Both the position numbers and the translations under genes were made by a program. From positions 44,766 to 108,765 of IMG/VR virus record IMGVR_UViG_3300020152_000001: 64,000 bases of DNA; one strand, given 5' to 3'. The notes under the pieces were generated by a model, which was not told the origin of the DNA, made no database searches, and worked only from the letters and a program-made list of their open reading frames with translations. Below, in pieces: positions 27,019 through 54,024 of the stretch. Position 1 is the first letter of the stretch, and each line of letters starts with the position of its first letter. This stretch comes from a virus (Duplodnaviria > Heunggongvirae > Uroviricota > Caudoviricetes).

Positions 27019-27046
27019 TTGACGGCGATGTCAGTCTCCCTTACAA
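27019..27046 (+). promoter_or_regulatory. putative rightward promoter (TTGACG-N16-TTACAA)
   Basis: Within the 117-bp divergent intergenic region upstream of the rIIA-like gene. Confidence 0.35.
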
Positions 27047-27088: not shown

Positions 27089-29290
27089 ATGAAGTCGGCA
27101 GTTCTGGAAAAGCGCGAAGTCGAGGTCGGTGGCGCCTCTGAGATCGGTGAATTCACGATCGCGGCCAACGCCAAGGCCTTCCGCATCCTCATCGACGGCC
27201 TGTATTCCGACAAGCCGCGCGCCATCGTCCGTGAACTCTGGTCGAACGCCTTCGACTCCCACATCGAGCACGGCTGTGCCGATCGCCCGTTCGAATGCCA
27301 CCTCCCGACGCAATGGGAGCCCTTCTTCAGCGTCCGGGACTTCGGAGTCTCGCTGTCGCACGAAGGCGTGATGAAGCTCTACACCCGCGTTTTCGAGTCC
27401 ACGAAGGAAGACACCAACAAAGCCGTGGGCAAGTTCGGCCTCGGCTCGAAGACGTTCTTCGCCTACACCGACTCCGCTAACGTCATCGCTCGCAAGGACG
27501 GCCGCAAGCGCACCTACAACGCCTTCATCGCCGAGAACGGCAAACCCATGATCGTGCTCTTCGCCGACGAAGAGTGTGACGAAGAACAGGGTCTGGAGGT
27601 CTCGTTCTCGGTCAAAGTCCAGGACATCGAGAATTTCAAGCGCGCCGCCCGTATGACGCTGCCGGGCTTCGATGTTCACCCCATCATGACTGGCGCCGAA
27701 GTCGTCGCCGAGAGCCTTCAGACCAACATTGAAGGCACCGGCTGGCGACTGGTCCGCCCGAACAACCTCGTCCGCACGGCCGTAGCCCGCCAGGGCTGCG
27801 TGATTTATCCGATCGATCGCGGCGCCATGGCAGACGAAGCCCTCAGCTACACGCAGCTGGAGCTTCTGAACTCGCCGCTGTTCATCGACTTCCCGATCGG
27901 CGATGTCGACATCACCCCGTCGCGCGAAACCCTCTCCTACGACGACGCGACGAAGAAGAATATCGCCAAGCGTCTGGTCGAGATCGAGAACGAAATCGTC
28001 GGCCGTGTCGAAGTCGCTATCTCCGGTGCGAAGACGCTTTGGGAAGCGCGCCGCGAGCTGAATTCTGTCCTCGGCGAATACTCGCTGCCGTCGACGATTC
28101 GCGACTTCATCAAAGGCAACGCCAAGTGGCGCGGCGAAACCGTCGAACGCTACATCAAGGTCAAGTCGCGACCGTTCGCCGCCCTCGCGCACATTCGCTC
28201 GTATGAACTCCGTCGCCGCAAGTCGGAAATTCGTTTCGACGCGAGAAGCGACATCAGCCTCACCGTCGACGACGGCTTGGTCATCGTTTTCCAGGACGTG
28301 AACAAGCGCGTTACCTACCAAAACGCACGCTTGCGCGAGTTCATCGACACCCTGCCCTACAACAGCGATCGTTCGGTTCTGTGGGTCAAGGTCGACTATA
28401 CGAAGACCGACTACAAGCGCCTGCTCGTCGATCTCGGCAAGCCGCCGGCTAATGTCATCTACAAACTCGAAGACATGCCGGAACCTTATATCAACCGCGT
28501 CGCCGGCCCGAAGATCAAGATCAAACGCCTCGACTATTCGTCGTGGACGGAAGCCAACCATCAGCCCGAAGACGGCGGCATCTATGTCGACTTGAAGAAG
28601 AACGACATCATCCGCAAGGTCAAACGGCCGATCGAGCAAGTGAAGTACGAAGACGGCCAACCCGTCACCGACCCCGCCACCGGCGACTGGGTGTATGAGA
28701 CCGTCGTCAAAGAAGTCGAGACGCATGTCGGCGTCTACGAACTCAAGAACTTCATCGAACTCCTAGTGGCCCAGGGCGTGATGAAGGACGGCGACCAAGT
28801 CCTTGGCATCACCGCGTCCTACAAAAACATACCGACCAAGCACGCCGGCTGGAAAAACTTCTTCGATCTCCTGGACGAAAGCGTCGACACCAACATCGAC
28901 CTCAACCTCTTGGCGTCGGTGAAGGCCTATGATCCCGTAAAGCGTACACGCGCTTGGAACATTGCCGAAGAAATGCTGGACGCCGGCCTGCAAGTCACCG
29001 ATGGCCCGGCAAAGAAGCTCATGGCCGAGATCGAGTTCTATCGCGAACTCGTTGCTTCGGATGACGTGAAAAAGGCGGAGGCCGCGTTCAAGGTTCTCCA
29101 AGCCGTCCGTCCGCAAGACGCGGAGCTGCCGGACGCTCCGGAACCTTGCGAAGCCGAAATCTCAGCCTTCGAAGACGCATACCCCATGGCCATGGCCTTG
29201 GTGGAGGCCTCGTATGGTTCGATCTCGTCGGCGCAGCTGTCGATGATCGTCGATTACGTAATTCTCGTTGACAAACGTCAGCAAGTGTGA
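27089..29290 (+). CDS. rIIA: rIIA-like GHKL (Hsp90-type) ATPase
   Basis: LYSDKPRAIVRELWSNAFDS and VGKFGLGSKTFFAYTD match the Hsp90/GHKL N and G1/G2 boxes. 733 aa, followed by a partner gene, as in T4 rIIA-rIIB. Confidence 0.55.
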   Translation: MKSAVLEKREVEVGGASEIGEFTIAANAKAFRILIDGLYSDKPRAIVRELWSNAFDSHIEHGCADRPFECHLPTQWEPFFSVRDFGVSLSHEGVMKLYTRVFESTKEDTNKAVGKFGLGSKTFFAYTDSANVIARKDGRKRTYNAFIAENGKPMIVLFADEECDEEQGLEVSFSVKVQDIENFKRAARMTLPGFDVHPIMTGAEVVAESLQTNIEGTGWRLVRPNNLVRTAVARQGCVIYPIDRGAMADEALSYTQLELLNSPLFIDFPIGDVDITPSRETLSYDDATKKNIAKRLVEIENEIVGRVEVAISGAKTLWEARRELNSVLGEYSLPSTIRDFIKGNAKWRGETVERYIKVKSRPFAALAHIRSYELRRRKSEIRFDARSDISLTVDDGLVIVFQDVNKRVTYQNARLREFIDTLPYNSDRSVLWVKVDYTKTDYKRLLVDLGKPPANVIYKLEDMPEPYINRVAGPKIKIKRLDYSSWTEANHQPEDGGIYVDLKKNDIIRKVKRPIEQVKYEDGQPVTDPATGDWVYETVVKEVETHVGVYELKNFIELLVAQGVMKDGDQVLGITASYKNIPTKHAGWKNFFDLLDESVDTNIDLNLLASVKAYDPVKRTRAWNIAEEMLDAGLQVTDGPAKKLMAEIEFYRELVASDDVKKAEAAFKVLQAVRPQDAELPDAPEPCEAEISAFEDAYPMAMALVEASYGSISSAQLSMIVDYVILVDKRQQV

Positions 29291-29347
29291 CATCTAGGCT
29301 CAACCCAGGGGCTTCGGCCCGCAGAAAACGGAGGCAATGCGGCTACA

Positions 29348-30772: not shown

Positions 30773-31282
30773 ATGCCCGTCAACAAGCTCAAGCTCGTGC
30801 CCGACTCCGACCCCGTGCTTCACCAGCCGGCGCCGGAAGTCGCGATTACGGGCTCGCAGCTTCGCGGTGGTAAGAGCTATCCAGACTTCGGCGCTGAAGT
30901 CATCGCCGAACTCAGCGACATGTACGACCTCATGAAGATGCAGCGTGCGATCGGAATCGCCGCGCCTCAGGTCGGACTGGCCAAGCGCATGTGCATCGTC
31001 GCCGTGGGTCACGACGTTCATTTCATGATCAACCCCAAGATCACGTTCTCGTCGGGGATCAAGCAGACGGCGCTAGAAGGCTGCCTCTCCTACCCCGGCC
31101 AACAAGCCAAGGTGTCGCGTTCACTCTCGCTCGTCGTCGAGTTCTACGATCGCTCTGGCATCTTCCACAAATTGCGAGCGCAGGGTTTGCTTGCCCGCTG
31201 CATCGCACACGAGGTCGACCACCTCGACGGCATCGTCATGCACGATCGCGTCAGCGTGGCTGACAAGCGTCAGGCAAGCTAA
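30773..31282 (+). CDS. def: peptide deformylase
   Basis: All three PDF motifs are present: GIAAPQVG, EGCLS, HEVDHLDG. Confidence 0.9.
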   Translation: MPVNKLKLVPDSDPVLHQPAPEVAITGSQLRGGKSYPDFGAEVIAELSDMYDLMKMQRAIGIAAPQVGLAKRMCIVAVGHDVHFMINPKITFSSGIKQTALEGCLSYPGQQAKVSRSLSLVVEFYDRSGIFHKLRAQGLLARCIAHEVDHLDGIVMHDRVSVADKRQAS

Positions 31283-31303: not shown

Positions 31304-32722
31304 GTGGACCTAGGTCTTCTCACTTTGATCGTCCTCGCCGTGTTCGGCGTCGTCGGATTCGTCGCCGTGGTGCTCGCATTCGCGTGGCGTCGCGTCGTCC
31401 CCACCAACATGGTGCATATCGTCCAGTCTCGGACGAAGACCACAAGCTACGGCACCAATCTGCCGAGCGGCAACGTCTACTACAAGGTCCCGGCCAGCAT
31501 CCCGTTCTTCGGCGTGCTCGTCCGTGAACTCCCGACTTCGAACTTCGACATCAAGCTCGATGCCTACGACGCCTACGACAAAGATCGCGCGCCATTCTTG
31601 CTCGACCTCATCGGCTTCTTCGTCATCGAAGACACGAACAAGGCGGCCGCGAAGGCCGAGAGCTTCGATAGGCTCGTTGCCCAGCTGAAAGACATCATGC
31701 GCGGCGCCGCCCGGACGGTGCTCGCCAAGCATGAAGTCAACGAAATCATGGGCGACCGTGCGACTTTCGGCAACGCGTTCACGCATGAAGTCGACGACGG
31801 CCTGAAGGAATGGGGCGTTCGTTCCGTCAAGTCGATGGAACTCATGGACATCCGAGACGCCGCCGGCTCGAAGATCATCGCCGACATCATGGCGAAGAAG
31901 GCCTCGGCGATCGAAATGGACTCGCGCAAAACCGTTGCCGAGAACAAGAAGCAAGCCGAGATCGCGGAGATCGAAGCCGACCGCGAAGTCGAACTGCAAG
32001 AGCAAGACAAGCTCCAGAAGGTCGGCGAACGCACGGCCGGCCAAGAGCAAGCGGTTGGCATCGCCAAGGAAGCGGCGCAGCAGAAGATCAAAGAAGCTGC
32101 GGCCGAGACCATGCGCAAGCAGAAGGCCGTCGAAGAAGTCGAGCGTGTCCGCACGGCTGAAATCGACAAAGCAGCCGCGCTCGTGATCGCCGAAGAGCAG
32201 AAGCAAGTCGCGATCATCGCCGCCGACGCCGCGAAGGCCACCGACATCGTCCGCGCCGAAGGCGAGAAGCAGCAGACGGTGCTGCGCGCCGAAGGTCAGC
32301 TGGAAGAAGCCCGCCGCGAAGCCGATGGCATCCGCGCCAAGGGCGAAGCCGAGGCCGAAGCCAAGCGTCTGCTGGAAATGGCACGCGTCGCCCCCGAGCT
32401 GGAACTCGCGGACGGCCTCGCCAAGGTCGCAGGCTACACGGACTACCTCCAAGCGCTCGCGGCCATCGCCGCTGCGAAGGAAGTCGGCGTCGCCAACGCC
32501 GGCGCCCTCGAAAAGGCCGACATCCAGGTCTTCGCGAACTCTAACGACGCTGCTCAGTCTCTGGGCTCGATCGGCGACCTGTTGGGCACCGGCGGCGGCA
32601 TCAAAGTCGGCGCACTGCTGGAAGGCCTCAAGGCCACCGACACCGGCCGCTTGCTGCTTGGCAAGCTTCTGGGCGAGACCGCAAACGATCGCGATCCCGT
32701 CGCTCCGGCCAAGTCCGCATAA
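31304..32722 (+). CDS. SPFH/Band-7 flotillin-like membrane protein
   Basis: N-terminal TM, an SPFH-like region, then a long Ala/Glu/Lys coiled coil. GTG start behind aaaggaagaaagc. Confidence 0.7.
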   Translation: MDLGLLTLIVLAVFGVVGFVAVVLAFAWRRVVPTNMVHIVQSRTKTTSYGTNLPSGNVYYKVPASIPFFGVLVRELPTSNFDIKLDAYDAYDKDRAPFLLDLIGFFVIEDTNKAAAKAESFDRLVAQLKDIMRGAARTVLAKHEVNEIMGDRATFGNAFTHEVDDGLKEWGVRSVKSMELMDIRDAAGSKIIADIMAKKASAIEMDSRKTVAENKKQAEIAEIEADREVELQEQDKLQKVGERTAGQEQAVGIAKEAAQQKIKEAAAETMRKQKAVEEVERVRTAEIDKAAALVIAEEQKQVAIIAADAAKATDIVRAEGEKQQTVLRAEGQLEEARREADGIRAKGEAEAEAKRLLEMARVAPELELADGLAKVAGYTDYLQALAAIAAAKEVGVANAGALEKADIQVFANSNDAAQSLGSIGDLLGTGGGIKVGALLEGLKATDTGRLLLGKLLGETANDRDPVAPAKSA

Positions 32723-37066: not shown

Positions 37067-38691
37067 TGTCCGCAGCGAGTCGCCTGGAGCTTAGCTACGC
37101 TCCCGACTCCGACTTTGAAATTGAAGCACCTCCGGGGAAAACCTACCTCCCCTATCAGCGCGCCGCCGTGGAGTACGCGCTGGGAATTCGTCACGTCCTC
37201 ATTGCCGACCCGCCGGGGTTGGGGAAGACGATCGAAGCCATCGCGATAATCAACACCGACGAAAGCATTCGTCGCGTCCTCATCGCCTGCCCTGCGTATC
37301 TCAAACAAAACTGGCACCGCGAACTCGATAAGTGGCTGGTGCCCGATCTCACGTTCGGCATCGCCGACGCAGAATACATCGAGCGAGAGCAAGTCGGCGT
37401 CTTCTCGAAAGGCAAGAACGCCGGGAAGCCGCGCTACCGCGTAAAGGCGAGGCACAAAGACTACTGGCCCGACACCGACATCGTCATCGTCAACTATGAA
37501 ATCCTGAAGCGCTTTCCCGAGAAGCTGCAGGAGATCGAGTGGGACCTGCTGATCACCGACGAAGGCCACTACATCTCCAACAAGAAGGCCGATCGTTCGA
37601 AGCATATCTGGGGCTTCAACCCCAAACGGCAGAAGGGGAAGCATCGCGAAGGCAAAGAGGTGAAGCCTCTGCGCTACCGGCGTTGGGTCGTGACGACGGG
37701 GACGCCGATCATGACGCACCCTATCGACTTGTGGCCGTTCTTGGAGCGCTTCGACCCGCAGGGACTCGGCCGCAACTACGTCTCCTACATCCGCAAATAC
37801 TGCGGCGCCGTCCGCAATGGATTCGGTTGGGAGATCGGCACCCCGAGCGACGCCGCTCTCGAAGAGCTGCAACAGCGGATGCGGGCGGTGTTCATGATCC
37901 GCCGCGACAAGCGCGAAGTCCTGAAAGACCTCCCCGACAAGACCCGCCAGATCATCCCCCTGCCCAAGGCCGGGCTCGCGGAACTAGCCGACGAAGAGCT
38001 GGACGCCGTCGAGACCGGCCTGAGGTTCTGGGAAGAGCGTCTGGGCATCAAGAAGCCCGAGAAGGAGGCATGGACCTGGGCGAACCTTGCGGAGGCCCTG
38101 GAGGCGAAGTTCGGTCACCTGGGCGGCCTCAGCTACGAGGACGCGGTCGAGCATCTGAAGCCCGACGAGAAGCCTGTATTCGAGGCCCTGAGCGTGGCCC
38201 GGCGCCGGCTGGCCCTGGCGAAGGTCCCCATGGTCGTCGAGCACGTCGGCGGCCTCATACAGGCTGGCGAGAAGGTCATTGTCTTCGCCGTCCACAAAGA
38301 AGTCTGCGAGGCCGTCGCCAAGGGCTTGGAGGCCTATCAGGCGCGGCCCGTCGTCATCACCGGCTCTACCCCCGCCAACCGCCGGCAGGGGCTTGTAGAC
38401 CGCTTCCAGGACGATGCCAGCTGCCGGGCGGCCGTGGGCAACATGCTGGCCATGGGGACGGGCTACACCATGACCGAGGCCCGGTTTGTGGTCTTCGCCG
38501 AACTCTCCTGGGTCCCGTCTGAGCTGGAGCAAGCCGAAGACCGGGCGTGGCGGCTGGGCCAGAAGAACGCCGTCGTCTCCCAACATCTCGTCGTCGAGGA
38601 CAGCCTCGAAGGTCACATGGCCGGGATCATCGTCGAGCGGATGGAGGTCATTTCCAAGGCCCTAGATCGCCGGCCCGTTAATTCTGCTTGA
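37063..38691 (+). CDS. SNF2-family helicase
   Basis: ADPPGLGKT, LITDEGHYISN (DEGH box), TGTP, and helicase-C motifs GNMLAMGTGYTMTEA...QAEDRAWRLGQ. Confidence 0.85.
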   Translation: MMSAASRLELSYAPDSDFEIEAPPGKTYLPYQRAAVEYALGIRHVLIADPPGLGKTIEAIAIINTDESIRRVLIACPAYLKQNWHRELDKWLVPDLTFGIADAEYIEREQVGVFSKGKNAGKPRYRVKARHKDYWPDTDIVIVNYEILKRFPEKLQEIEWDLLITDEGHYISNKKADRSKHIWGFNPKRQKGKHREGKEVKPLRYRRWVVTTGTPIMTHPIDLWPFLERFDPQGLGRNYVSYIRKYCGAVRNGFGWEIGTPSDAALEELQQRMRAVFMIRRDKREVLKDLPDKTRQIIPLPKAGLAELADEELDAVETGLRFWEERLGIKKPEKEAWTWANLAEALEAKFGHLGGLSYEDAVEHLKPDEKPVFEALSVARRRLALAKVPMVVEHVGGLIQAGEKVIVFAVHKEVCEAVAKGLEAYQARPVVITGSTPANRRQGLVDRFQDDASCRAAVGNMLAMGTGYTMTEARFVVFAELSWVPSELEQAEDRAWRLGQKNAVVSQHLVVEDSLEGHMAGIIVERMEVISKALDRRPVNSA

Positions 38692-38734
38692 CAAATGACG
38701 TAAGTTTGGCTTACCCTATGGGGAAGGAATAAGA

Positions 38735-39343
38735 ATGCTTCGACTGGTATGGACGCGGCCCGGCCGCAAGGACACGTGGATCACCACTGTCTCCGGTCGC
38801 AAGATCGCACCGTTCGACCCAAAACCCGAACAGTTTGAGATCAGCGACCTCGCTCACTCACTCTCGCGCCAGTGCCGCTTCGGCGGTCACATTGAGCCGT
38901 TCTATTCGGTGGCGCAGCATAGCGTCTACGTGATGCGAGCGACCAAGCTCTCTATGGCGAAGTATTGGGGGCTGATGCACGACGCCAGCGAGGCCGTGAT
39001 CACCGACCTCCCGACTCCGATCAAGCGCTACATCCCAGACTACGAGGCCGCTGAAGACAAAATTCAGCGCGTGATCTCGCGTCGCTTCCACATTCCCCGT
39101 GGGCCCACAGTCGACGCCGCAGTGAAGGAAGCCGACACGCTGCTGCTGTGCTGGGAAGCATACACGCTGCACCCGGACCCCATGTCCATGAACTTCCTCA
39201 AGCGTCTCGCCGGCAGAGTGCCGAAGGGTACGCTCCGCGATCTCGATCCCCAATTCCGTTGCTGGTCTCCAGACGAAGCCAAGGCGAGATTCCTCGCCGA
39301 GTTCGCTGAGATTTCGCCGTTCGTCACAGCTGAGGCGGCGTAA
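38735..39343 (+). CDS. HD-domain phosphohydrolase (YfbR-like)
   Basis: ISDLAHSLSRQCRFGGH ... AQHS ... LMHDASE supplies the H...HD...D metal ligands. Confidence 0.6.
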   Translation: MLRLVWTRPGRKDTWITTVSGRKIAPFDPKPEQFEISDLAHSLSRQCRFGGHIEPFYSVAQHSVYVMRATKLSMAKYWGLMHDASEAVITDLPTPIKRYIPDYEAAEDKIQRVISRRFHIPRGPTVDAAVKEADTLLLCWEAYTLHPDPMSMNFLKRLAGRVPKGTLRDLDPQFRCWSPDEAKARFLAEFAEISPFVTAEAA

Positions 39344-39997
39344 ATGACCGACGAACTCACTGACGAACAACTGAAAAGCTTGCGGCCGGCGAAGAAGCGA
39401 CGCAGAGACGCTGCCATGGGCGATCTCGGCTACGAGCGCATCGCCGCCGATTTCTATCCGACTGAGGAGCAGTGGACGAAGAGACTCGTCCCCTATCTCA
39501 AAACAAAAATTGGCCCTGACGACATCATCTGGGAATGTGCCGCCGGCGCCGGCGATATGAGCGACGTTCTCATTGGCGCTGGGTTCAGAGTTCTCGCCAC
39601 CGACCTCCACGACCGCAACCATCCTCTAATCTGGAGCGGCATGGACTTCCTCAAGGAAAAAGAGCTGCCTTCTGATCCGAACTTCGGATGCGTTGGAGGT
39701 CGGAAGGTGCGCGCCATCGTCACCAATCCCCCGTACTCGCATGCGAAGGAATTCCTTCTGCACGCGATCGAACTCACGCGCCCTGCGGAAGGCATCGTCT
39801 GCATGTATCTCCGCAACGAGTACGATACCGCGAAGGGACGCATGGGTCTCTTCAACAAGCCGCCGTTCGCCGCGAAGATCGTCACCTGTGGGCGCCCTCG
39901 CTGGATCAAAGGCAGTAAAGGCGGCCCTCGACACACCTACGCTTGGTACGTCTTCGACCACCGACATCAAGGCCCGGCGCAAATCTTCTACGCCTAA
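39344..39997 (+). CDS. DNA methyltransferase, NPPY type (N6-adenine or N4-cytosine)
   Basis: Motif I IWECAAGAGDMSDVL and motif IV IVTNPPY. Confidence 0.7.
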   Translation: MTDELTDEQLKSLRPAKKRRRDAAMGDLGYERIAADFYPTEEQWTKRLVPYLKTKIGPDDIIWECAAGAGDMSDVLIGAGFRVLATDLHDRNHPLIWSGMDFLKEKELPSDPNFGCVGGRKVRAIVTNPPYSHAKEFLLHAIELTRPAEGIVCMYLRNEYDTAKGRMGLFNKPPFAAKIVTCGRPRWIKGSKGGPRHTYAWYVFDHRHQGPAQIFYA

Positions 39998-40023
39998 CGA
40001 CGTAAGTCTAACTGACACGGTCT

Positions 40024-42102
40024 ATGGAAAAGCTACGGACTGCAATCTGGGACATCGAAACCGATGGCTTGCTCGACAAGCTTACGCGGATTCACGTCCT
40101 CGCTATCCTGGAGCAGGAGTCCCAACGACGTTGGGTATTCCGTCAAAACGCGCGCGAGAACACCATCGAGCAAGGTCTCGAAATGGTGGCGAACGCCGAG
40201 CTGAACGTCGGCCACAACACCCTCCACTTCGACATCCCCGCCTGCGAAAAAGTCTATCCAGGCTTCGAAGTCAAAGGCCGCTGCCGCGACACCTTGGTGA
40301 TGTCTCGCCTCATCTTCCCGGATGAGAAGCAGCGAGACTTCATGCGCTTCGAGCGCGGCAAGCTCCCTGGCAAGCTCATCGGCGCCAACTCGCTCGACGC
40401 CTGGGGCTATCGCCTGAACTGCGGCAAAGGCGACTACAAGGCCGTCAAAGAACAGGAAGCCAAAGACAAAGGCATCACCGACCCTGACGAGATCGCCGCA
40501 TATGTCTGGGGCGAGTGGAATCAGGAGATGGAAGACTACGGCGTCCATGACCCCGTGGTCACTCAAGCGCTTTGGCGCCACTGCAACGCCGCGCGTTTCA
40601 GCGAAGATTCGATTATCCTCGAACATCGCATCCACGACTTTATGGGGAAGCAGGAGCGCAACGGCGTTCCGTTCAATCGCGAAGACGCCGAGAAACTCGC
40701 CGCCGGCCTCGAAGATGAGATGTTTCATCTCGTCGGCATCACCAAAGAGCACTACGGCAGTTGGTACGCTCCGGCGAAGAAGCGCATCGTCGCGCCTCGG
40801 TGGCATGACCCCGAGGGCAAGAACGAAGCGAAGTCGTACAAAGAGCCTCACTTCGAGCACGGCCAAGATCGCAACCGCGCCGTCTGGGGCGAGATCGCGA
40901 TTCCGAAGAAGACCATCCGCTACAAGGATAAGCAAAAAGGCGACCGCACCGAAGGCTGCGCCTACACGCCCATCCAGGTCAAAGAATTCAACCCGCTGTC
41001 GCGGGAAAACATCATCGATCGCTTCATAACCGTCTACGACTGGGACCCTCAGGAATTCACTGAGACCGGCCGGCCGGCGGTGAATGACGACGTTCTCCGA
41101 ACGCTCGTCGAGAAGATTCCCATGGCCGAAGAGCTGGCGGAAATCTTCTTCTACAAAAAGCTTCTGGGCCAGCTGAAGGACGGAGCGCAGTCCTGGCTCA
41201 ACGCCGTCGACGACGACGGCATGATCCATCACTACTGCAACGTCGGCGGTACGATCTCCGGCCGCGCCTCGCACGTCGGGCCCAACCTGGGTCAGGTGCC
41301 GTCTGTCGTCGTCAAAGACATCAAAGACGAGCTAGGCAACAAGATCGGCAAGCAAGTCGTCGAAGGCCGCGCTGGCGACTTTGGCTGGGAATGCCGCAAC
41401 CTCTTCTACGTGCCGGACCCTTACGTGCTCCTCGGCACCGACATGAGCGGCATCGAGTTCCGCTGCCTCGCCAATCTCACATACAAGTACGACAAAGGCG
41501 AACTCCTGGATGTCGTGCTTCACGGCGACATCCATGAGATGAACCGCGAAGCCGCAGGGCTGAAGTCCCGCGCCCAGGCGAAGACCTTCATCTACGCGTA
41601 CATCTACGGCGCCGGCGACTGGAAACTCGGCCACATTGCCGACCCGTATCTCACGGACTCGCAGAAGATTGCACTCGGCAAGCTTCTGCGCCGCACCTTC
41701 GAAGAGCGCATTCCAGCTCTCGGCAAAGTCGTCAAGGAAATCGGTCGCCAAGCTGCGAGCGGCAACATCCTTGGTCTCGACGGCCGCTGGCTGCGCGTTC
41801 GCGGCCAACACGCGGCGCTGAACCTCAAGCTCCAATCGGATGCTGCGGTTCTCGCGAAGCAGTGGATTCTGAACTTCCTCGACGGGATGGACGATGCCGG
41901 CCTCCGCGAAGGCTGGGGCGGCGACTGGGTCCAGCTGCTGTGGGTTCACGACGAACTTCAGCAGGCAATCCTCCCGAAGCACGTCGACTTCGCAAAGCAC
42001 CTCCAAGCGAAGGCCGCGAAGGACGCGGGCGCTCGCTTCGGCTTCGTCCCGCCGGTCGACGTGGAATCGAAAATCGGCCGCACGTGGGCGCAAACACACT
42101 GA
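40024..42102 (+). CDS. family A DNA polymerase (3'-5' exo plus pol domains, no 5'-3' exo)
   Basis: Exo I AIWDIETDGL. Motif A LGTDMSGIEFRCLA, motif B KTFIYAYIYGAG, motif C LLWVHDELQ. Confidence 0.9.
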   Translation: MEKLRTAIWDIETDGLLDKLTRIHVLAILEQESQRRWVFRQNARENTIEQGLEMVANAELNVGHNTLHFDIPACEKVYPGFEVKGRCRDTLVMSRLIFPDEKQRDFMRFERGKLPGKLIGANSLDAWGYRLNCGKGDYKAVKEQEAKDKGITDPDEIAAYVWGEWNQEMEDYGVHDPVVTQALWRHCNAARFSEDSIILEHRIHDFMGKQERNGVPFNREDAEKLAAGLEDEMFHLVGITKEHYGSWYAPAKKRIVAPRWHDPEGKNEAKSYKEPHFEHGQDRNRAVWGEIAIPKKTIRYKDKQKGDRTEGCAYTPIQVKEFNPLSRENIIDRFITVYDWDPQEFTETGRPAVNDDVLRTLVEKIPMAEELAEIFFYKKLLGQLKDGAQSWLNAVDDDGMIHHYCNVGGTISGRASHVGPNLGQVPSVVVKDIKDELGNKIGKQVVEGRAGDFGWECRNLFYVPDPYVLLGTDMSGIEFRCLANLTYKYDKGELLDVVLHGDIHEMNREAAGLKSRAQAKTFIYAYIYGAGDWKLGHIADPYLTDSQKIALGKLLRRTFEERIPALGKVVKEIGRQAASGNILGLDGRWLRVRGQHAALNLKLQSDAAVLAKQWILNFLDGMDDAGLREGWGGDWVQLLWVHDELQQAILPKHVDFAKHLQAKAAKDAGARFGFVPPVDVESKIGRTWAQTH

Positions 42103-42161
42103 CGATGTTAATTTTCGCTTGACTTCTGCGTAAGTCTCGCTTACACCCGGAGAACACTGAC

Positions 42162-42608
42162 ATGACCACCGAGACTCCGGCCGCTACGGCCGATCAGGCT
42201 CCCGACACCGCGAATGCGGTGCCCGCAGCTCCCACCCCTCCGACCCAACGCCGCCAACAGCTTCCGCTGGCGTATCGCGCTGGGATACTGATCGGTCGCC
42301 TCATCCAGGCGTTGACGGTGACGATTGTCTTCGGCCCGCTCCTGGTCGCTGGTTTGAAGCTCTTCGGAGTCGAAGGCTTCGTGGCGCTGGGCTACGCCGC
42401 GATCTTCTCGCCATATCTCCTCATCGTCGTCGCCGCCATCATCTACTCCCTCGCCTTCCACGCGACGTTCGCGGCGACGACGCAGGTGATGACGCAGCGC
42501 GACATGCTCGCCGCGCAATACTACCAGCAGCAGCAAGCCCTAGCCGCAGCAGCGGCGAAGTCGGCGCCGGCGGTGTCCAAGAACTACAAGCGTCGGCGGG
42601 CTCACTGA
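42162..42608 (+). CDS. hypothetical membrane protein
   Basis: Ala/Pro-rich N-terminus then 2-3 TM helices. Confidence 0.45.
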   Translation: MTTETPAATADQAPDTANAVPAAPTPPTQRRQQLPLAYRAGILIGRLIQALTVTIVFGPLLVAGLKLFGVEGFVALGYAAIFSPYLLIVVAAIIYSLAFHATFAATTQVMTQRDMLAAQYYQQQQALAAAAAKSAPAVSKNYKRRRAH

Positions 42609-42609
42609 T

Positions 42610-43224
42610 ATGACGGCGACGCTCTTCTTCGATACCGAAACCACAGGCCGCGTCCAGAAGTGGGATGCCCCTCCGTCCGACCCCTCGCACCCGATGCCTG
42701 TGCAGCTCGCGGCAATCCTCCGCGACGACGACACGCTGAAGGAAATCTCCAGCCTCAACGTCATCATCCGTCCTGAGGGTTGGGTGATTGAGCCCGGCGC
42801 CGCCGCCGTTCACGGCATCAGCCAAGAGTATGCAGCGCAGTACGGCATCGCGTTGGAGAACGCCACGTGGGCGTTCATGGGCATGCTCAACGCCGCTGAC
42901 ATGGTTGTGGCTCACAACCTCCGCTTCGACGCCACGGTCATGCGCCGCGCCGCACACGTCGCCGAGGTCCCGGACATCTTCGCTGAGAAGCGTCCGCGCT
43001 GCACGATGCTGGCTTCGATCCCAATCTGCCGCATCCTCCACAAGCGGCCTCGTCACCCAACGGACTTCAAATATCCGAAGCTCGACGAAGCCATGCTCTA
43101 TTTCTTCAACACCGGCGTCGGCGACGACGCGCACGACGCCCTCGTCGACGTGCGGGCCTGCATCCGCGTTCACGACGAACTCCAGAAGATGCGGGCGTTC
43201 CCTGACATGGCGGCAGCGGCCTGA
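42610..43224 (+). CDS. DnaQ-like DEDDh 3'-5' exonuclease
   Basis: Exo I FFDTETTG, Exo II VAHNLRFD, Exo III AHDALVD. Confidence 0.8.
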   Translation: MTATLFFDTETTGRVQKWDAPPSDPSHPMPVQLAAILRDDDTLKEISSLNVIIRPEGWVIEPGAAAVHGISQEYAAQYGIALENATWAFMGMLNAADMVVAHNLRFDATVMRRAAHVAEVPDIFAEKRPRCTMLASIPICRILHKRPRHPTDFKYPKLDEAMLYFFNTGVGDDAHDALVDVRACIRVHDELQKMRAFPDMAAAA

Positions 43225-43622
43225 TGCAGTTGGCTCTTCAATACCGAGAAGAGCACGCGAAGTTTCCCGTAGGGCGGGTGACTTCGACGTGCTTGCGTGG
43301 CGACGAAGCTTTCAAGCGTCTTCAAGTGGGCGACATCGTCCAGGTTGAGGCCATTGAAGGCGCAAACAACGACATCCGGCACCTCGGCGAAGCCGCGATC
43401 ACGGCGAAGAAGCTCACGACCAAGCTCTTTGTTCTTCGTGACGCCCACGAGAACCACTTCTGTCAAGCGGTCGGCGGCCTGCCGTCGAAGCTCATGCAGG
43501 ACGATCTCGATTGGGCCGAACGCACGCTCGAAGACGTGATCACGGCGCTGCACGGCGAACTCCCGCAGGATGAGGTCTTCACCGTCCTCTACCTACTTCC
43601 CCTCAACGCACGGCAAGACTGA
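43224..43622 (+). CDS. hypothetical protein
   Basis: ATGA coupling. Confidence 0.45.
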   Translation: MQLALQYREEHAKFPVGRVTSTCLRGDEAFKRLQVGDIVQVEAIEGANNDIRHLGEAAITAKKLTTKLFVLRDAHENHFCQAVGGLPSKLMQDDLDWAERTLEDVITALHGELPQDEVFTVLYLLPLNARQD

Positions 43623-43774
43623 TGAAGTATCTCGTTCTCGTCGACGGCTTCGCTTCTTTCGAGTGTGAAGCCGACAATCGCACCGACGCCATCGAGCAAT
43701 ACATCGATGCGTTTGGCGAGACCTCAGCCGAACTCGATGCCGTCCCAGATGACGATCAAGGCTCCTGGTAATGG
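43622..43774 (+). CDS. hypothetical 50-aa acidic protein
   Basis: MKYLVLVDGFASFECEADNRTD.... Coupled to both neighbours. Below the track cutoff. Confidence 0.3.
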
Positions 43775-44832
43775 CCGCTCTCGACTTCAAACAGATTTTC
43801 AACGACTACATCGCCGACACCCAGAAGAAGTGGGCGCACGACCGCTCGACTACGTTGGGTGCGTCGGAAGTCTTCGGCTGCATCCGCAAGGCGTGGTTCT
43901 CGAAGCGCGGCGCCGAGTTCGGCTACGAGAAAGACCCCGACTACGAAGAGTCGTGGGGCGCTACGCGTCGCGGCGACCTCATCGAAAACTTCCACGTGGT
44001 CCCGGCGATGAAATATCTCCCGCCGCCGGCCGAGATCAAATACGCGGGCGAGGATCAAGAGACCATTGTTCTCGATCGCAACTCCGCGACTCCGGACGGC
44101 CTGATCACCGGGCTCACAAAGGATGCGCTGAAGAACTACGGTGTCGACAACATCAAGTCGAACTGCATCGTCCTCGAAATCAAGTCGATCGATCCCCGCG
44201 TCAATCTCAAGGCCGAGAAAGACATTCACCACGGGCAAACCCAGGTGCAGATGGGCATCATTCGTGAGACCACGAAATTCCGTCCGCACTACGCCGTTGT
44301 TCTCTACATCGACGCCAGCTTCCTGGACGACATCAAGGTCTTCGTCGTCGAGTTCGACGAGAAGAAGTGGGAGGTCGCGAAGAAGCGCGCCGGCAATGTT
44401 TGGTCGATCGACGATCCAAAAAAGCTGACCCCCGAAGGCAAGTTCGACGGCAGCTGCGAATACTGCCCGTACACGCACGCTTGCGCTTTCGTCACCAACG
44501 GCATGATCCCAGAGACGTTGGCGAAGAAGGGCAAGTTCGTCGCCGTCGACGACAAGCTACTGGAAACGCTGCTCGCGTCCTATGGCGCTATCACTGAGAA
44601 GAAGAAGGCCGTCGAGGCCGACTACGAACTCATTCGGCAGCAGATCAAGGAACGCCTTGTCGAGGTCGGCGACAGCCGCGTGCAAACCGATCGCGGCAAG
44701 GTCTCGTGGTCGAAGCAAAAGGGCCGCGAAACCCTGGATACCGAGGCCATGGAAGCCGATGGCATCGACCTCGGCAGATACAAAAAGGAAGGCGCTGCCT
44801 TCGACAAGCTGACGATTACGCTCGACGATTGA
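43771..44832 (+). CDS. PD-(D/E)xK exonuclease, Cas4/YqaJ-like with C-terminal Cys cluster
   Basis: GASEVFGCIRKAWF, VLEIKS (E-x-K), CEYCPYTHAC cysteine cluster. Confidence 0.6.
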   Translation: MAALDFKQIFNDYIADTQKKWAHDRSTTLGASEVFGCIRKAWFSKRGAEFGYEKDPDYEESWGATRRGDLIENFHVVPAMKYLPPPAEIKYAGEDQETIVLDRNSATPDGLITGLTKDALKNYGVDNIKSNCIVLEIKSIDPRVNLKAEKDIHHGQTQVQMGIIRETTKFRPHYAVVLYIDASFLDDIKVFVVEFDEKKWEVAKKRAGNVWSIDDPKKLTPEGKFDGSCEYCPYTHACAFVTNGMIPETLAKKGKFVAVDDKLLETLLASYGAITEKKKAVEADYELIRQQIKERLVEVGDSRVQTDRGKVSWSKQKGRETLDTEAMEADGIDLGRYKKEGAAFDKLTITLDD

Positions 44833-44929
44833 CGTAAGTCCGCCTGACACGGTGAGAAGAGAGAAGAGCAAAGGCCAGAAGTGCGTCCACCGACGTAAGT
44901 TTCACTAACCCCGAAAGGAAAGTCCCACC

Positions 44930-45664
44930 ATGGGCAACGAAGTAGCAGTGCGAAATCAAAGCAACGCGGTCGCGACCGCAGCTGATCAATGGGCCGACCT
45001 CGCCAACCAATACAGCGCTGGCGGCGGTGACGGCGGCGGCGTCCAATTCCTGAAGTTCAACGGCAACGACGGCGAATTCACCTACGGCGCCAATCGCGAA
45101 GTCCTCGACATCGGCACGCAGCTCGCCGTCAACATGGAGAGCTACGAAGTCGGCTTCATCTGCTGGAAAGAGGGCGAAGTCGTCGACGAGAAGATGGTGC
45201 CGATCGTCTCCGGCCAGTCGGTCAGCAAGGCCGATCTCCCGGATCACGGTCCCTACAAGACCTACGAAGACGGCACGAAAGACGGCTGGTCCGAGCAGCG
45301 TTCGGTGAACTTCAAGGGCATCGAAGACGGTACCGATTATCAGTTCAAGACGACCTCGAAGTCGGGCCTCATCGCCCTGGGCAACCTCCTCCGCGACTTC
45401 GCGAAGGGCGTGAAGCTCAACGACGGCAAGGTCCCGGTGATCGAACTCGCGATCAACACCTTCACGCCGAAGAACAACCCCCGCGCCGGCAAGAAGCACG
45501 CGCCGACGTTCAAGATCGTCGCCTGGGTCGATCAGAACGAACTCGCGGAAACGATCTCCAGCAACAGCGCCGCTGCGGCTGAAGAAGAAGTCGCGGCTCC
45601 GCCGCCGCCTCCGCCAGCTCCGGCTCCGGCCGCTGAGGGCGGTCGTCGCGGCCGTCGCTTCTAA
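44930..45664 (+). CDS. hypothetical protein (possible ssDNA-binding/annealing protein by context)
   Basis: Sits between a nuclease and a helicase. Pro/Ala-rich C-terminal tail. Confidence 0.4.
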   Translation: MGNEVAVRNQSNAVATAADQWADLANQYSAGGGDGGGVQFLKFNGNDGEFTYGANREVLDIGTQLAVNMESYEVGFICWKEGEVVDEKMVPIVSGQSVSKADLPDHGPYKTYEDGTKDGWSEQRSVNFKGIEDGTDYQFKTTSKSGLIALGNLLRDFAKGVKLNDGKVPVIELAINTFTPKNNPRAGKKHAPTFKIVAWVDQNELAETISSNSAAAAEEEVAAPPPPPPAPAPAAEGGRRGRRF

Positions 45665-47993: not shown

Positions 47994-48586
47994 TGGCGGC
48001 ATGGATCGAGGGCTACGTCTCTCGGTTCGACACCGAAGACTGCTACGGAGACATCAACTTAGAAACCTGCTTCGACGTGTTTCTTCGGCGCTACCGCACC
48101 GTCTTTGAGTGCGGCGTCCCCATGCTCATCGAGCACGACGACAAGAGGCTCTGCGGGCGCTGGTACAGGTTCTGGAAGGACAAGGACGGTCTCATTGGCC
48201 GTGGTGAAATCTTCCGTCATCGGAAACATGGCCGCAACGCCGTCGCCGGGATTCTAGACGGCAGTCGTCGCGATCTCAGCATCGGTTTCTGGCACTCGCG
48301 GAGCCGACACGATTCCAGCCGTTGGTATCGCGTCGATTCCGACGACAAGAAGACCATCAAGTTTCTGCGGAAGGGCGGCCGGCGGCTGATCCCTTCCCAA
48401 ACCGAGGCCCAGGCCTTCGCCTTCAGGCCGTTTGTTAAGACCCGCATCCTCATCGGCGAGGTCTCGCTCGTTAACCGAGCCGCCTGCGTTGGGTCGCGGG
48501 TGCAACAAATCGTTAACCACGGGGTCAGTTTGCCTGACTTCGGCGCAATTCCGCTTGACATTCAGTCAGCGTCAGTATCTAACTAG
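47993..48586 (+). CDS. HK97-family prohead protease-like protein (peptidase S78/U35-like)
   Basis: IEGYVSRFDTEDCYGD...PMLIEHDD...LSIGF follows the S78 pattern (GYASVF..D..GD...HD...LSiGF). Located in the replication module, away from any head genes. Confidence 0.4.
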   Translation: MAAWIEGYVSRFDTEDCYGDINLETCFDVFLRRYRTVFECGVPMLIEHDDKRLCGRWYRFWKDKDGLIGRGEIFRHRKHGRNAVAGILDGSRRDLSIGFWHSRSRHDSSRWYRVDSDDKKTIKFLRKGGRRLIPSQTEAQAFAFRPFVKTRILIGEVSLVNRAACVGSRVQQIVNHGVSLPDFGAIPLDIQSASVSN

Positions 48587-48595
48587 GAGGATGAA

Positions 48596-49558
48596 GTGCA
48601 GTTCCAAGTCGTCGCTATCGCCGGCCGCAAGTTCGCCGGCAAGGACACCGCAGCGCAGGCTCTCGTCGATGAGGGCTATGTGAACGTGAAGTTCGCGACG
48701 CCGTTGAAACTGATGATCCGCACGCTGCTGGAGGCCCGGGGGGCCACGGCCGATGAAGCCGAGCGGATGACGGACGGCGATCTCAAAGAAGTCGTGACAC
48801 CGCTGCTGGACTTCAGCAATACCGGCTCCAGCGAACTCCAGGTGCTGGCCACGGCCATGCTCCGCGTTCTCCTCACGTATCAGGGCGTAAGTGACTATGA
48901 CGCCGGTGTGATGCTGGAAGGCAACGCGAAAGACAAAGCGACGAAATACCTCCAATTCCGAACCCCTGCTTACGCGTTGGAAACCCTGGCTGGCCTATGG
49001 CTGGGGAAAATCATGTCGGCAGGCCCGGCCACCAGCCGGTACGCGATGCAGACGCTTGGGACGGAATGGGGTCGCGATACCATGGGCGAAGGCCAGTGGG
49101 TTGATGCAGCCGTCAACTGCATCGAAGAGATCAAGAAGTCCGGCGGCAAGGCCGTCGTCTCTGACATGCGCTTTCCCAACGAAGGCGACGCCATGGACAC
49201 CATCGGCGCCCTGAAACTTCGCGTTCGTCGCTCCGGAGACCCGCAACAGTTCAACAGCTTCTCCAACCACCCGAGCGAGACCGCGATCGACGACCTGTCG
49301 GTTCATCTTGACATCGATAACGACAGCACGATCGAAATGCTGCACGGCCGCGTGAAGCTCGCGGCGCAGAACCAGAAACAAGTCCGCCTCGTCGAAACCA
49401 TCGACCGCTCCGAACTCGAAGCCATGGGCGGAAATCTAGTCACGCATCCGAAGCTCGCCGGCGCCTACTCGGTGCTTTCTCAGTACCAGGACGATGCCAC
49501 TCGGAAGCTGAAAGTCGAATTTCTTGCGCTACGCCCGATTTTGGACTTGGCGGCATAG
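48596..49558 (+). CDS. dNMP kinase domain protein (T4 gp1-like) with C-terminal extension
   Basis: VAIAGRKFAGKDT matches the T4 gp1 P-loop (SGVKRSGKDT). Confidence 0.55.
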   Translation: MQFQVVAIAGRKFAGKDTAAQALVDEGYVNVKFATPLKLMIRTLLEARGATADEAERMTDGDLKEVVTPLLDFSNTGSSELQVLATAMLRVLLTYQGVSDYDAGVMLEGNAKDKATKYLQFRTPAYALETLAGLWLGKIMSAGPATSRYAMQTLGTEWGRDTMGEGQWVDAAVNCIEEIKKSGGKAVVSDMRFPNEGDAMDTIGALKLRVRRSGDPQQFNSFSNHPSETAIDDLSVHLDIDNDSTIEMLHGRVKLAAQNQKQVRLVETIDRSELEAMGGNLVTHPKLAGAYSVLSQYQDDATRKLKVEFLALRPILDLAA

Positions 49559-50308: not shown

Positions 50309-50455
50309 TTCTTGCGGCCGTCAGTTTTATTGACACGGCCGGCAAGCGTCGCTATCCTCGTCCTTCATCCCAAAAGCCGCACGGCCTAGCCGGCGAGACC
50401 TTGCGTCCGCCGGACGCCTCCCCTGTTGCCTCCAACCAAGAAGGTCACAAGACCC

Positions 50456-53014: not shown

Positions 53015-53824
53015 ATGGCACGCAAGGCAAAAGGTGCTAAGCGCACAGTGAAAAGGAGACGCATCATGAAGACTGCTCCGGCGGCGCCGCCGCCACAGAC
53101 TCCGCCCCGGGCCGCTGCCGGTCCTCGTCTGGTTTCGGAGACCGGGGTTCTCGCACGTGAAAAGTCGACGGTGGGCTCTCGCCTACGCGAAGCCCGGGAG
53201 CGCGCAGAGATGACGCAAGCCGACGTAGCTGGAAAGCTGCCCTCCCCGAAGGGCGACGGCCGGACGATGTCTCGGGCGAACATCGCTCAGTACGAAAGCG
53301 ACGCCGTCGAGCCCCCGCTTCACACCGTCGAAGAGATCGCGAAGATTCTGAAGACGCCGGCCTCGTATCTGGCATTCGGCGTCGGCGGGCTTGGTCCCCT
53401 CGGCACCGGCCAGGACGCGATCGATGCCTTGCTCGCTGAGGTCCCCGAATTCACGTTCGGCGACGCTCCCGACGCCCGCGAACCCGTCACCGAATGGAAG
53501 CTGCCGAAGGACTGGCTGCGGGCTCAGCTCCGCGTCAGCAAGTTCGACGACCTCTTCATCTACCAGTGCCAATCGCAGAACATGGCGCCGCAATACGAGT
53601 TCGGCGACAAGCTCGTGGTCGACGGCAGCGACCGTAAGGGCAGCGGTGTCTATCTGCACTGGGACGGCACGGCGCCGGCGATCAACCGCATCACCGTGAT
53701 CCCCAAGGCCTCGGGCCCGATCGCGCGTGTGGCGTCGACGGACAATGTCACCGACCAATACGAGGTGCCGGTCTCTGACCTGCATATTCTCGGCCGCGTT
53801 CGCGGCGTCTGGAAAGCCTCGTAA
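53015..53824 (+). CDS. CI-like repressor (N-terminal XRE HTH plus C-terminal S24 LexA-like peptidase domain)
   Basis: HTH SRLREARERAEMTQADVAGKL...ANIAQYES. S24-like QSQNMAPQYEFGDKLVVD and ILGRVRGVWK. ATG at 53015 behind agaggtaagag. Confidence 0.65.
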   Translation: MARKAKGAKRTVKRRRIMKTAPAAPPPQTPPRAAAGPRLVSETGVLAREKSTVGSRLREARERAEMTQADVAGKLPSPKGDGRTMSRANIAQYESDAVEPPLHTVEEIAKILKTPASYLAFGVGGLGPLGTGQDAIDALLAEVPEFTFGDAPDAREPVTEWKLPKDWLRAQLRVSKFDDLFIYQCQSQNMAPQYEFGDKLVVDGSDRKGSGVYLHWDGTAPAINRITVIPKASGPIARVASTDNVTDQYEVPVSDLHILGRVRGVWKAS

Positions 53825-53826: not shown

Positions 53827-54024
53827 TCACGACGCCTCCTTCACCCAACGATCGATAAGAGCCACGACTCTGTCCTCTCTGACCCTGCGCCGTCGTCTAA
53901 CGACGGTGCAGGGCAGATCACCTCGATCGATGGCGTCGTTCACCCAATCCGCTGTGATGTCGACTAGCCCGCGCGATTGAAAAATCGCTGCGGCGTCTTC
54001 GGTTGTGATGAGCTTCGGCTCCAT
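53827..54024 (-). CDS. excisionase/AlpA-like small DNA-binding protein
   Basis: MEPKLITTEDAAAIFQSRGLVDI...LPCTVVRRRRRVREDRV resembles the Xis/AlpA HTH_17 type. Confidence 0.4.
   Translation of the reverse strand: MEPKLITTEDAAAIFQSRGLVDITADWVNDAIDRGDLPCTVVRRRRRVREDRVVALIDRWVKEAS

Follow-up and report, generated by a model that had tools for sequence, protein, structure and literature searches.

A recurrent dyad-symmetric site in a large, apparently temperate alphaproteobacterial phage as a probable operator overlapping sigma-70-type promoters

Lambdoid phages have two tripartite operators. For the P22 repressor, c2, the operator consensus is ATTTAAGATATCTTAAAT, with half-sites TTAAG around a 4-bp centre (PMC5175364). 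The C1 repressor of phage P1 has 22 operators dispersed over the genome, its site being an asymmetric 17-mer, ATTGCTCTAATAAATTT (PMC8546580). Phage L5 and its cluster A kin have >20 operators or 'stoperators', both in promoters and in short co-directional gaps, with an orientation that follows transcription, and the L5 repressor (gp71) binds an asymmetric site of 13 bp as a monomer that has two DNA-binding domains (PMC9283540). Could many operators served by one repressor also be built on a symmetric site? The question is raised by a repeated element in a stretch of 64,000 nucleotides (the window) from a Caudoviricetes virus, IMG/VR record IMGVR_UViG_3300020152_000001, positions 44,766 to 108,765. 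An earlier note on this DNA had taken the element for a promoter class of the phage, with CGTAAGT and TTAC or TGAC as its boxes and a phage-encoded factor or modified host RNA polymerase as its reader. The analysis described here points elsewhere: the element is quite probably a protein operator overlapping promoters of sigma-70 type and, with somewhat better than an even chance, its copies are the dispersed operators of a phage repressor over such promoters, the binder being the CI-like protein encoded at 53066-53824.

The conserved part of the element is a 17-bp two-fold-symmetric site with the core YGTMAG-N5-CTKACR. The window has 15 exact copies of GTMAG-N5-CTKAC where 0.09 are expected, and zero copies in which the same arms are separated by N3, N4, N6 or N7. 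CGTAAGT occurs 13 times (3.0 expected), and CGTAAGT-N5-TKAC nine times against 0.00 in dinucleotide shuffles. When the weight matrix is symmetrised the consensus is YGTMAGYnWnRCTKACR, with equivalent half-sites and a central W, and at a score of at least 11 it finds 28 sites in the window, compared with 0.8 in shuffles. The matrix penalises the central bases too much, and an exact core site that it missed in another contig (L255) was recovered by the plain pattern. The centres of the half-sites are 10 bp apart, and two equivalent half-sites about one helical turn from each other are what a CI/Cro-type operator has. What had been taken for separate promoter boxes are instead the two arms of one dyad-symmetric site.

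All the copies listed in the earlier note were found again in their places, two of them with a reservation. That at 54148-54167 is present, with its TTGAC one base off register with the dyad; that at 44894-44911 is also present, with a CTAAC arm and a left arm that is not kept in a relative of about 80% nucleotide identity (L002/L131). Seven copies had not been listed, namely 10889, 15845, 27030, 31250, 48524, 50320 and 54034. That TTGAC can contain the TGA stop codon of the preceding gene is true at 38689-38691 and 44830-44832. The 54148-54167 copy, next to the tRNA gene, reads CGTAAGAgatagTTGACG and is kept in L131 (at about 11070) as TGTAAGAGcgaaTTGACGA; the same N6 arrangement is seen at -2075, outside the window (CGTAAGTctcgcTTGACA), and may be a variant in which the -35 outranks exact half-site spacing. 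The string CT(G/T)AC(N)ATG is present 13 times (e.g., at 42157, 5846, 15849, 16702, 26959 and 56874) against 4.3 expected, and six of its ATGs are real start codons. A literature search for the literal GTAAG/CTTAC yielded primer sequences only, and the phiCbK genome paper describes no such motif. The idea of a CtrA box, from TTAA-N7-TTGAC upstream of 38688 and 42119, was dropped as the spacing is inconsistent (10 versus 11), and a likeness of GTAAGT/CTRAC to a eukaryotic splice site and branch point was judged to be coincidence.

The region examined comprises 82.7 kb, i.e., the window and 9.3 kb on each side of it, of a circular assembly of about 132.6 kb. It has 35 sites, and 29 of them are intergenic or at most 12 nt from a gene end, as are just 7.6% of all positions (p = 4e-27); 20 of the 38 intergenic gaps of at least 15 bp contain a site. 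More than 20 dispersed sites are thus at promoters of separate operons, which is the pattern of dispersed-operator immunity. Is this a property of the phage or of its surroundings? In alphaproteobacterial chromosomal DNA (120 loci, 864 kb, GC content 0.62) there is 1 exact copy, equivalent to 0.07 per 64 kb, and because of this the motif is considered real and phage-specific. On that score, for which the earlier note had proposed the host-frequency comparison, its expectation was borne out, as were its statements that the element is promoter-associated and that it serves both operon orientations, on replication genes as well as tail genes. A chance or compositional repeat, a target of restriction-modification or methylation, or the ends of a small mobile element would be a barely credible source of such a distribution. 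A C-5 cytosine DNA methyltransferase gene is indeed present at 11968-12912, and one pair of sites (5129..5145 and 5841..5857) stands inverted around gene 5146..5841; against this, the motif is >100-fold over the shuffle expectation and nearly absent in host DNA, its copies are nearly all at gene boundaries with fixed offsets from -35 boxes, and, as to a mobile element, no repeated flanks extend outside the 17 bp.

The relationship to promoters is not single but threefold. TTGAC is at offset -10 from the dyad at three sites, at +11/12 at seven and at +21/22 at five, where 0.053 would be expected per offset, and every register-defining TTGAC is on the transcribed strand. In register A, TTGAC-N5/6-dyad (11946, 23981, 25642, 27030, 38700, 42130 and 54034, with 67879 outside the window), the dyad fills the spacer, of 17-18 bp, and the right arm CTTAC gives the -10 as TACnnn. 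In register B, TTGACA-N15/16-GTAAG-N5-CTKAC-ATG (15845 and 16698, with -2051 outside the window), the left arm gives a -10 of TAAGTn and the right arm is over the start site. In register C (20545 and 50320) the right arm is the -35 TTGACA itself, with TATTGT or TATCCT 17 bp downstream. The arm over a -10 is always the A/T variant (GTAAG or CTTAC); the full sites devoid of promoter hexamers have GTCAG/CTGAC for both arms (31250 and 48524) or one arm of each type (10889). This choice of arm fits a symmetric site whose degenerate position is co-opted for the TA of the -10. Since three registers exclude a single promoter architecture, and in all of them RNA polymerase would be occluded, the element is regarded as an operator over sigma-70-type promoters; the predicted promoters are overlapped at the -35, the spacer and -10, or the -10 and +1, as by operators of CI/Cro type. 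Several transcripts are predicted to be leaderless, as had been suggested before, and the start codons concerned, 8-9 nt past the -10, match the records' own gene calls where these are available.

How would the alternative, a phage-specific promoter class read by a phage sigma-like factor, an activator or modified host RNA polymerase with CGTAAGT and TTACNC/TGAC as its boxes, fare with the same data? The motif is tightly tied to gene starts on both strands, mixed sites are biased in their orientation relative to transcription, and the weakness of the implied -10 elements might call for assistance. Further, five sites with register B geometry lack a recognisable -35 (5842, 40002, 44834, 44895 and 63385) and retain TAAGT at the -10 position, all with GTAAG upstream and CTGAC or CTAAC downstream. 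Nevertheless the arms are equivalent and vary independently, the perfect TTGACA is met in three registers, and there are full sites with no promoter or downstream gene (31250 and 48524) or inside coding sequence (10889). A single fixed architecture, of the kind that a phage factor reads in the T4 MotA-box and T7-type classes, with CGTAAGT as a conserved spacer and a non-canonical -10, is therefore not what is seen, as the three registers and the promoter-less sites attest. No sigma factor, RNA polymerase or MotA-like domain was found, by Pfam scans and precomputed matches, in the genes called over the 82.7 kb. An independent promoter consensus scan called two of the sites, 25667 (TTGACA-17-TACAGT) and 24006 (TTGACA-17-TACGAT), as ordinary 10/12 promoters. 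The dyad positions, over the -35, the spacer and -10 or the -10 and +1, are those of repressors. Activators, unlike these dyads, are typically at -41.5 or -61.5, and promoters of MerR type have spacers of 19-20 bp against the 17-18 bp here. As, in addition, unrelated temperate phages have the same dyad as an operator-type motif between their CI-like and Cro-like genes (below), a separate promoter class is quite improbable. There is, as a separate matter, a second type of promoter at 26985-26990 and 56900-56905 (and at 73188, outside the window) with near-identical -10 regions, gcgtgaTAGTG(A/T)nnGCTGACnATG, each combined with a perfect TTGACA-N17, a start codon at the predicted start site, hence a leaderless geometry, and only half of the dyad; at 26990 and 56905 it takes the form TTGACA-17-TAGTGw-N8-ATG.

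An inverted repeat can also pair with itself. A short RNA or DNA hairpin, whether for processing, for termination or attenuation, or as a translational operator at gene starts, would account for inverted-repeat arms and for the many copies just before start codons and so within polycistronic mRNA. However, the variable arm position (M/K) is complementary in only six of 16 sites, pairing fails there in the other 10, and 359 of 500 shuffles reach the pairing observed; because the arms do not covary, the element is not taken to be a hairpin. Its stem would be just 5-6 bp with a frequent central mismatch, T-tracts are absent after the sites, the only Rfam match in the window is the tRNA, and the register A element is upstream of the predicted transcription start, and hence would not be transcribed. 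A hairpin is accordingly as far-fetched as a chance repeat. In the divergence between relatives the arms are largely spared: at four orthologous sites in L002/L131 the arms have 1 substitution in 40 positions and the centre 7 in 20 (Fisher p = 0.0013), a pattern that would be that of a protein-binding site. A distant relative, L102, whose rIIA is 48% identical in amino acids, keeps TTGAC-N6-GTCAG-N5-CTTAC upstream of that gene. The individual sites are collected, with the genes of the integration and immunity module, in Table 1.

Table 1. Dyad sites of the window, in order of position, followed by the genes of the putative integration and immunity module. Promoters, all predicted, are written as -35, spacer length and -10.
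Feature	Position	Strand	Sequence and surroundings
Dyad	5129..5145	-	TGTCAGtctaaCTTACg; exact core, score 24.9; junction of gene 5146..5841 and RNA-ligase-like gene (start called 5156)
Dyad, register B without recognisable -35 (site 5842)	5841..5857	-	CGTAAGtgagaCTGAC, then directly the ATG of 5146..5841, in agreement with the record's gene call
Dyad (site 10889)	10888..10904	-	Within UvrD-like helicase coding sequence 10361..11887; the only strong site deep in a gene
Register A	11945..11971	-	TTGACtttgaCGTAAGtctcgCTTACg; TTGACT-17-TACGCT; upstream of UvrD-like helicase; weaker neighbour at 11927
Register B	15844..15881	-	TTGACA-N16-GTAAGcaagaCTGACa-ATG; gene 15412..15843 (YspA/SLOG-like, Pfam), predicted leaderless
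Register B, weaker dyad	16697..16733	-	TTGACA-N15-GCAAGcgtaaCTGACc-ATG; gene 16325..16696
Register C	20544..20560	-	GTAAGtttagTTGACA; right arm is the -35 of TTGACA-17-TATTGT; upstream of 20145..20489
Register A	23980..24006	-	TTGACAagggCGTCAGtatggCTTACgat; TTGACA-17-TACGAT; upstream of HAD/PNKP phosphatase; promoter scan agrees
Register A	25641..25667	-	TTGACAtcggCGTCAGcctaaCTTACagt-ATG; TTGACA-17-TACAGT; gene 25276..25638, predicted leaderless; promoter scan agrees
Leftward promoter of divergent control region	26954..26990	-	TTGACA-17-TAGTGA-N8-ATG (gene 26699..26971); dyad degenerate, GATAGtgaagCTGAC
Register A	27019..27045	+	TTGACggcgaTGTCAGtctccCTTACaac; TTGACG-17-TACAAC; upstream of rIIA-like 27089..29290
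Weak site	29276..29292	+	CGTCAGcaagtGTGAC; just past TTGACA at 29268; upstream of rIIB-like gene (Pfam)
Full dyad, both arms C/G type (site 31250)	31249..31265	+	CGTCAGcgtggCTGACa; 3' end of peptide deformylase gene; 40 nt ahead of gene 31304..32722; promoter hexamers absent
Register A	38688..38715	+	TTGACAaatgaCGTAAGtttggCTTACcct; TTGACA-18-TACCCT; upstream of HD/YfbR-like gene
Dyad, register B geometry without -35 (site 40002)	40001..40017	+	CGTAAGtctaaCTGACa; score 26.0; starts 3 nt after preceding stop codon and ends 6 nt before polA ATG, a stoperator-like position
Register A	42119..42145	+	TTGACttctgCGTAAGtctcgCTTACacc; upstream of 42162..42608; TTGAC, CGTAAGT and TTACAC kept in L002
Tandem pair	44833..44910	+	Upstream of 44930..45664; first CGTAAGtccgcCTGACa (site 44834; in L002 arms kept, centre changed); second, weaker CGTAAGtttcaCTAACc (site 44895; in L002 left arm not kept)
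Dyad, both arms C/G type (site 48524)	48523..48539	+	GGTCAGtttgcCTGACt; in L002 arms kept, centre changed; ends 16 nt before a TTGACA -35 ahead of deoxynucleoside monophosphate (dNMP)-kinase-like gene 48596..49558
Register C	50319..50335	+	CGTCAGttttaTTGACA; right arm is the -35 of TTGACA-17-TATCCT; upstream of ribonucleotide reductase (RNR) gene; dyad core and both hexamers identical in relatives L131 and L132
Register A	54033..54059	-	TTGACgacaaaGCAAGcggcgCTTACg; upstream of Xis-like 53827..54072; left arm one mismatch; TTGAC and CTTACG kept in L131
Dyad (site 63385)	63384..63400	-	CGTAAGccaaaCTGACa; between baseplate-hub gene and 2153-aa tail-fibre gene, 21 nt before its ATG
CI-like repressor gene (252 aa), proposed dyad binder	53066..53824	+	XRE-type helix-turn-helix (HTH) and S24-like C-terminal domain
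Probable excisionase-like HTH_17 gene (81 aa)	53827..54072	-	E = 8.5e-4, below Pfam cut-off; convergent with repressor gene; synteny kept in L131
tRNA-Arg(CCG)	54209..54285	-	3' 45 nt, the probable attP core, adjoining integrase gene
Tyrosine integrase	54356..55516	+	In a module with the RNR, repressor, Xis-like and tRNA-Arg genes

One detail of the sites in Table 1 is that gene 42162 itself begins with CTGACATG, yet the full dyad is 13 nt upstream.

Viral contigs were scanned with the pattern TTGAC-N4-6-YGTMAG-N5-CTTAC. Most matches were single and are put down to chance, and in addition there were loci with two to four dyads. At six of these (L048, L054, L055, L062, L074 and L104) two or three dyads are beside a gene for a 65-70-aa protein of YdaS/P22_Cro type and, at all of the six except L062 and L074, the divergent partner is a CI-like gene of 230-266 aa with HTH_3 and Peptidase_S24 domains. 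The GC content of these CI/Cro-type dyad loci of other phages ranges from 0.37 to 0.71, and they have no other genes in common with the window. As loci that are otherwise unrelated carry the dyad by CI/Cro genes, the dyad is seen as an operator specificity of CI/Cro type with repeated occurrence among temperate phages. Elsewhere, four contigs that have no genes in common with the window, L097, L039 (of the same sample as the relative L002/L131), L065 and L102, have four to six dispersed dyads each in the same registers. In L097 the count of exact dyads is four within 10 kb, and TTGAC(A) precedes three of these in register A or B. The contigs may belong to the relative's genome, as parts of it not yet seen, or to further phages with genome-wide use of the operator. 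A near-identity DNA search of a phage collection gave no close relative. With polA, nothing was found in a genome collection and, in metagenomes, distant loci only, where the motif is absent; a search of viral contigs with rIIA gave nothing, and one with the repressor gave the known relative only.

What would bind? The product of 53066-53824 combines an XRE-type HTH with an S24/LexA-like C-terminal domain, the combination of CI/Cro-type repressors. Pfam gives HTH_31 (4.6e-9) and Peptidase_S24 (0.005, below the Pfam cut-off), PHROGs gives phrog_4 'transcriptional repressor' over residues 32-250 (2.9e-17), and a profile of the CI-like proteins matches both domains. In a structural model the HTH has a per-residue confidence (pLDDT) of 75-88 and superposes best on the DNA-binding domain of P22 c2 (template-modelling score (TM) 0.87, root-mean-square deviation (rmsd) 1.6 A). 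The full-length fold matches the 186, lambda and LexA repressors, with a C-terminal part of low confidence; because the model is confident only for the HTH these matches are weak evidence. Homologues are few: there are only three among 5.8 billion proteins, the exact protein itself being on record. That with 79% identity is in the relative that retains the sites and the synteny, that with 34% has a perfect GTCAGTCTCGCTGAC 57 bp from the gene end, and that with 27% has an exact site 137 bp ahead of the gene start, where about 0.02 exact sites would be expected per contig of such size. An insertion of nine residues, PSPKGDGRT, is found between helices 2 and 3 of the HTH in the window protein and in its 79% homologue; it is shorter in the 34% homologue and not present in the 27% one. 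In all four proteins alignment shows replacement of the S24 catalytic Ser and Lys (GDSM to SQNM and IKRL to INRI), so that the Ser-Lys dyad which CI/Cro-type repressors use for RecA-stimulated self-cleavage is missing, and induction by RecA-driven self-cleavage is unlikely. The C-terminal domain probably serves for dimerisation only, and induction is presumably through an antirepressor or another route.

Several points weigh against the candidate and against simple repression. The link between the repressor and the dyad is circumstantial, and SRANIAQYE, the recognition helix of the repressor, belongs to a common XRE type and does not discriminate. The usual RecA-driven route of induction would be closed to it. 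Its gene is outside the classical divergent cI/cro arrangement, as the RNR gene upstream of it runs the same way and the Xis-like gene runs towards it, and a divergent cI-cro pair sharing a tripartite operator is not found; a profile search with the Cro family detected no Cro-like partner in 82.7 kb of the approximately 132.6 kb. The DNA ahead of the repressor gene (52496-53065) offers no more than half-sites and a weak match at 52919. As to the sites, a symmetric roadblock does not predict the orientation bias of the five that lack a -35 (p ~0.03), which could also have promoter function, and by the E. coli consensus the implied -10 elements (TACnnn and TAAGTn) are weak. The region 52496-53065 is 570 bp of non-coding DNA whose last ~120 bp are well conserved in the relative. 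It has a candidate promoter for the repressor gene, TTGCGC (52945-52950) and TAGTGA (52968-52973) with a 17-bp spacer, isolated half-sites (CTTAC, CTGAC and GTAAG) with no full dyad among them, and a separate palindrome, TTGACTTTTGTCAA, at 52532-52545.

The same operator could instead be served by another binder, i.e., a Cro-like or other HTH protein of the phage encoded in the ~50 kb beyond the examined region, the weak-HTH product of 49925-50308, or a host factor. In other phages the dyad is between CI-like and YdaS/P22_Cro-like genes, and the product of either could bind; of the two it is the Cro-like proteins that vary less from locus to locus (45-56% identity), and the window repressor's own promoter region is without a full site. 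On the other side, the Cro-like family profile finds nothing in the 82.7 kb, the distant CI-like homologues have an exact dyad within 150 bp of their genes, and the near absence of the motif from host DNA argues against a host regulon. A further XRE gene, 55626-55883, is missing in L131, which keeps the sites. Another binder is on this evidence unlikely, though it is the alternative to be taken most seriously. Gene 55626-55883 is within a 413-bp segment, 55517-55929, from the integrase gene to the next minus-strand gene; the corresponding segment is ~104 bp in L131, and the region is a strain-specific accessory one.

The case for lysogeny is supported by the integrase gene beside tRNA-Arg, by a 45-nt remnant in the relative and by the identity of those 45 nt across alphaproteobacteria. 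The tRNA-Arg(CCG) is complete in the window. L131 (at about 11100-11150) has only its 3' 45 nt, as is expected of an attP core, and these are identical in >120 alphaproteobacterial genomes (Paracoccus, Mesorhizobium, Hyphomonas, Erythrobacter, Caulobacteraceae and others); because of that breadth the host is assigned to the alphaproteobacteria and not more narrowly. The window spans the two ends of ena:ERZ27252484:k141_12613 (132,745 bp), which overlap by 141 bp, the assembler k-mer, at 54209-54349; from that overlap the genome assembles as a circle of ~132.6 kb. The break of the assembly falls exactly at the tRNA.

From the sequence features described we infer protein binding, the identity of the binder and a repressive effect. 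A dimeric HTH regulator encoded by the phage would bind the 17-bp dyad, the most probable binder being the CI-like 53066-53824 protein, and the bound dimer would occlude RNA polymerase in any register. The short-gap copies (5842, 40002, 44834 and 63385) and the promoter-less copies (31250, 48524 and 10889) would be roadblocks or auxiliary binding sites, the former perhaps resembling L5 stoperators, or else being weak internal promoters. One repressor would then directly silence many independent operons and so keep a 132-kb prophage quiet, the controlled promoters being those that would drive replication, nucleotide metabolism, RNA repair, rII, excision and tail genes. In its strongest form the proposal is that a dimeric lambda/P22-type repressor with a symmetric site, and devoid of self-cleavage residues, is the sole genome-wide silencer, with its operator arms built into promoters and with stoperator-like copies of fixed orientation that would block elongation between co-directional genes; all of that together is a tentative and on balance doubtful proposition. 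If true, a symmetric site and a dimeric repressor would be doing what has so far been described only for the asymmetric P1 and L5 systems. Should the main reading alone be right, silencing by 'many operators, one repressor' could be built from ordinary CI/P22-type parts, and one dyad would explain the transcriptional layout of a large, otherwise unannotated alphaproteobacterial temperate phage: it would mark ~20 operon starts, predict leaderless genes, and point out both the immunity repressor and the regulon under it. Metagenomic phage contigs could be scanned for so simple a motif. A new promoter class is not established, and while the regulatory logic is familiar the case is clean and useful for annotation.

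Other genes of the window deserve brief mention. Those for RNA repair comprise a T4 Rnl1-like RNA ligase (21892-23370), an AAA_33 kinase (21332-21895), the HAD/PNKP phosphatase (23428-23967) and a second gene of the RNA-ligase family (4050-5156), a set that suggests defence against host tRNA or anticodon nucleases. A pair of rIIA-like and rIIB-like genes (27089-30679, with PF26926 on the second) opens a rightward operon in a phage that has an integrase and a repressor, and the rIIA homologue with its upstream operator is common to the window and L102. A short protein (209 aa) with a tyrosine-recombinase domain, encoded at 24015-24644, is also conserved in L102. There are, further, genes for an SspB-like ClpX adaptor (15888-16325), a peptide deformylase (30773-31282) and an SPFH/Band-7 protein (31304-32722).

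How, then, does this phage stand beside the systems with which we began? As with lambdoid CI and Cro and with P22 c2, the site has a two-fold symmetry that would suit an HTH dimer, and its half-sites are spaced by one helical turn; GT(A/C)AG, the half-site, resembles the TTAAG of P22, and it is the N-terminal domain of c2 that the HTH model of the window repressor fits best. Also as in lambdoid systems, the operators are over the -35 and -10 of sigma-70 promoters, the candidate has an XRE HTH with an S24-like domain, and the identical dyad is between CI-like and P22_Cro/YdaS-like genes in other phages. In contrast to P22 the centre is 5 bp, giving a 17-bp site, and not 4 bp; in contrast to lambdoid phages there are dozens of sites genome-wide, no divergent cro is beside the repressor gene, other residues stand in for the S24 Ser and Lys, and the host is alphaproteobacterial. 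With P1 the phage would share one immunity repressor for many operons of a large temperate phage, operators spread over about 100 kb, and a repressor that is not inactivated via self-cleavage, for which P1 uses the antirepressor Coi; no analogues of Coi, Lxc or c4 were identified. Unlike in P1 the operator is symmetric and the candidate CI-like, C1 itself not being a protein of XRE/S24 type. The resemblance to L5 is in the sites 5842, 40002, 44834 and 63385, which are in short co-directional gaps with GTAAG always upstream and whose positions and orientation bias would fit an elongation block of L5 type; the difference is that a dyad suits a dimer. The asymmetric site bound by a repressor of C1 or gp71 type, by which the dispersed-operator family is known, is replaced here by a symmetric site and an XRE/S24-like candidate. 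Not all the defining features of either group are thus found together: the parts and the recognition logic are of CI/P22 type, and their deployment resembles that of P1 C1 and L5.

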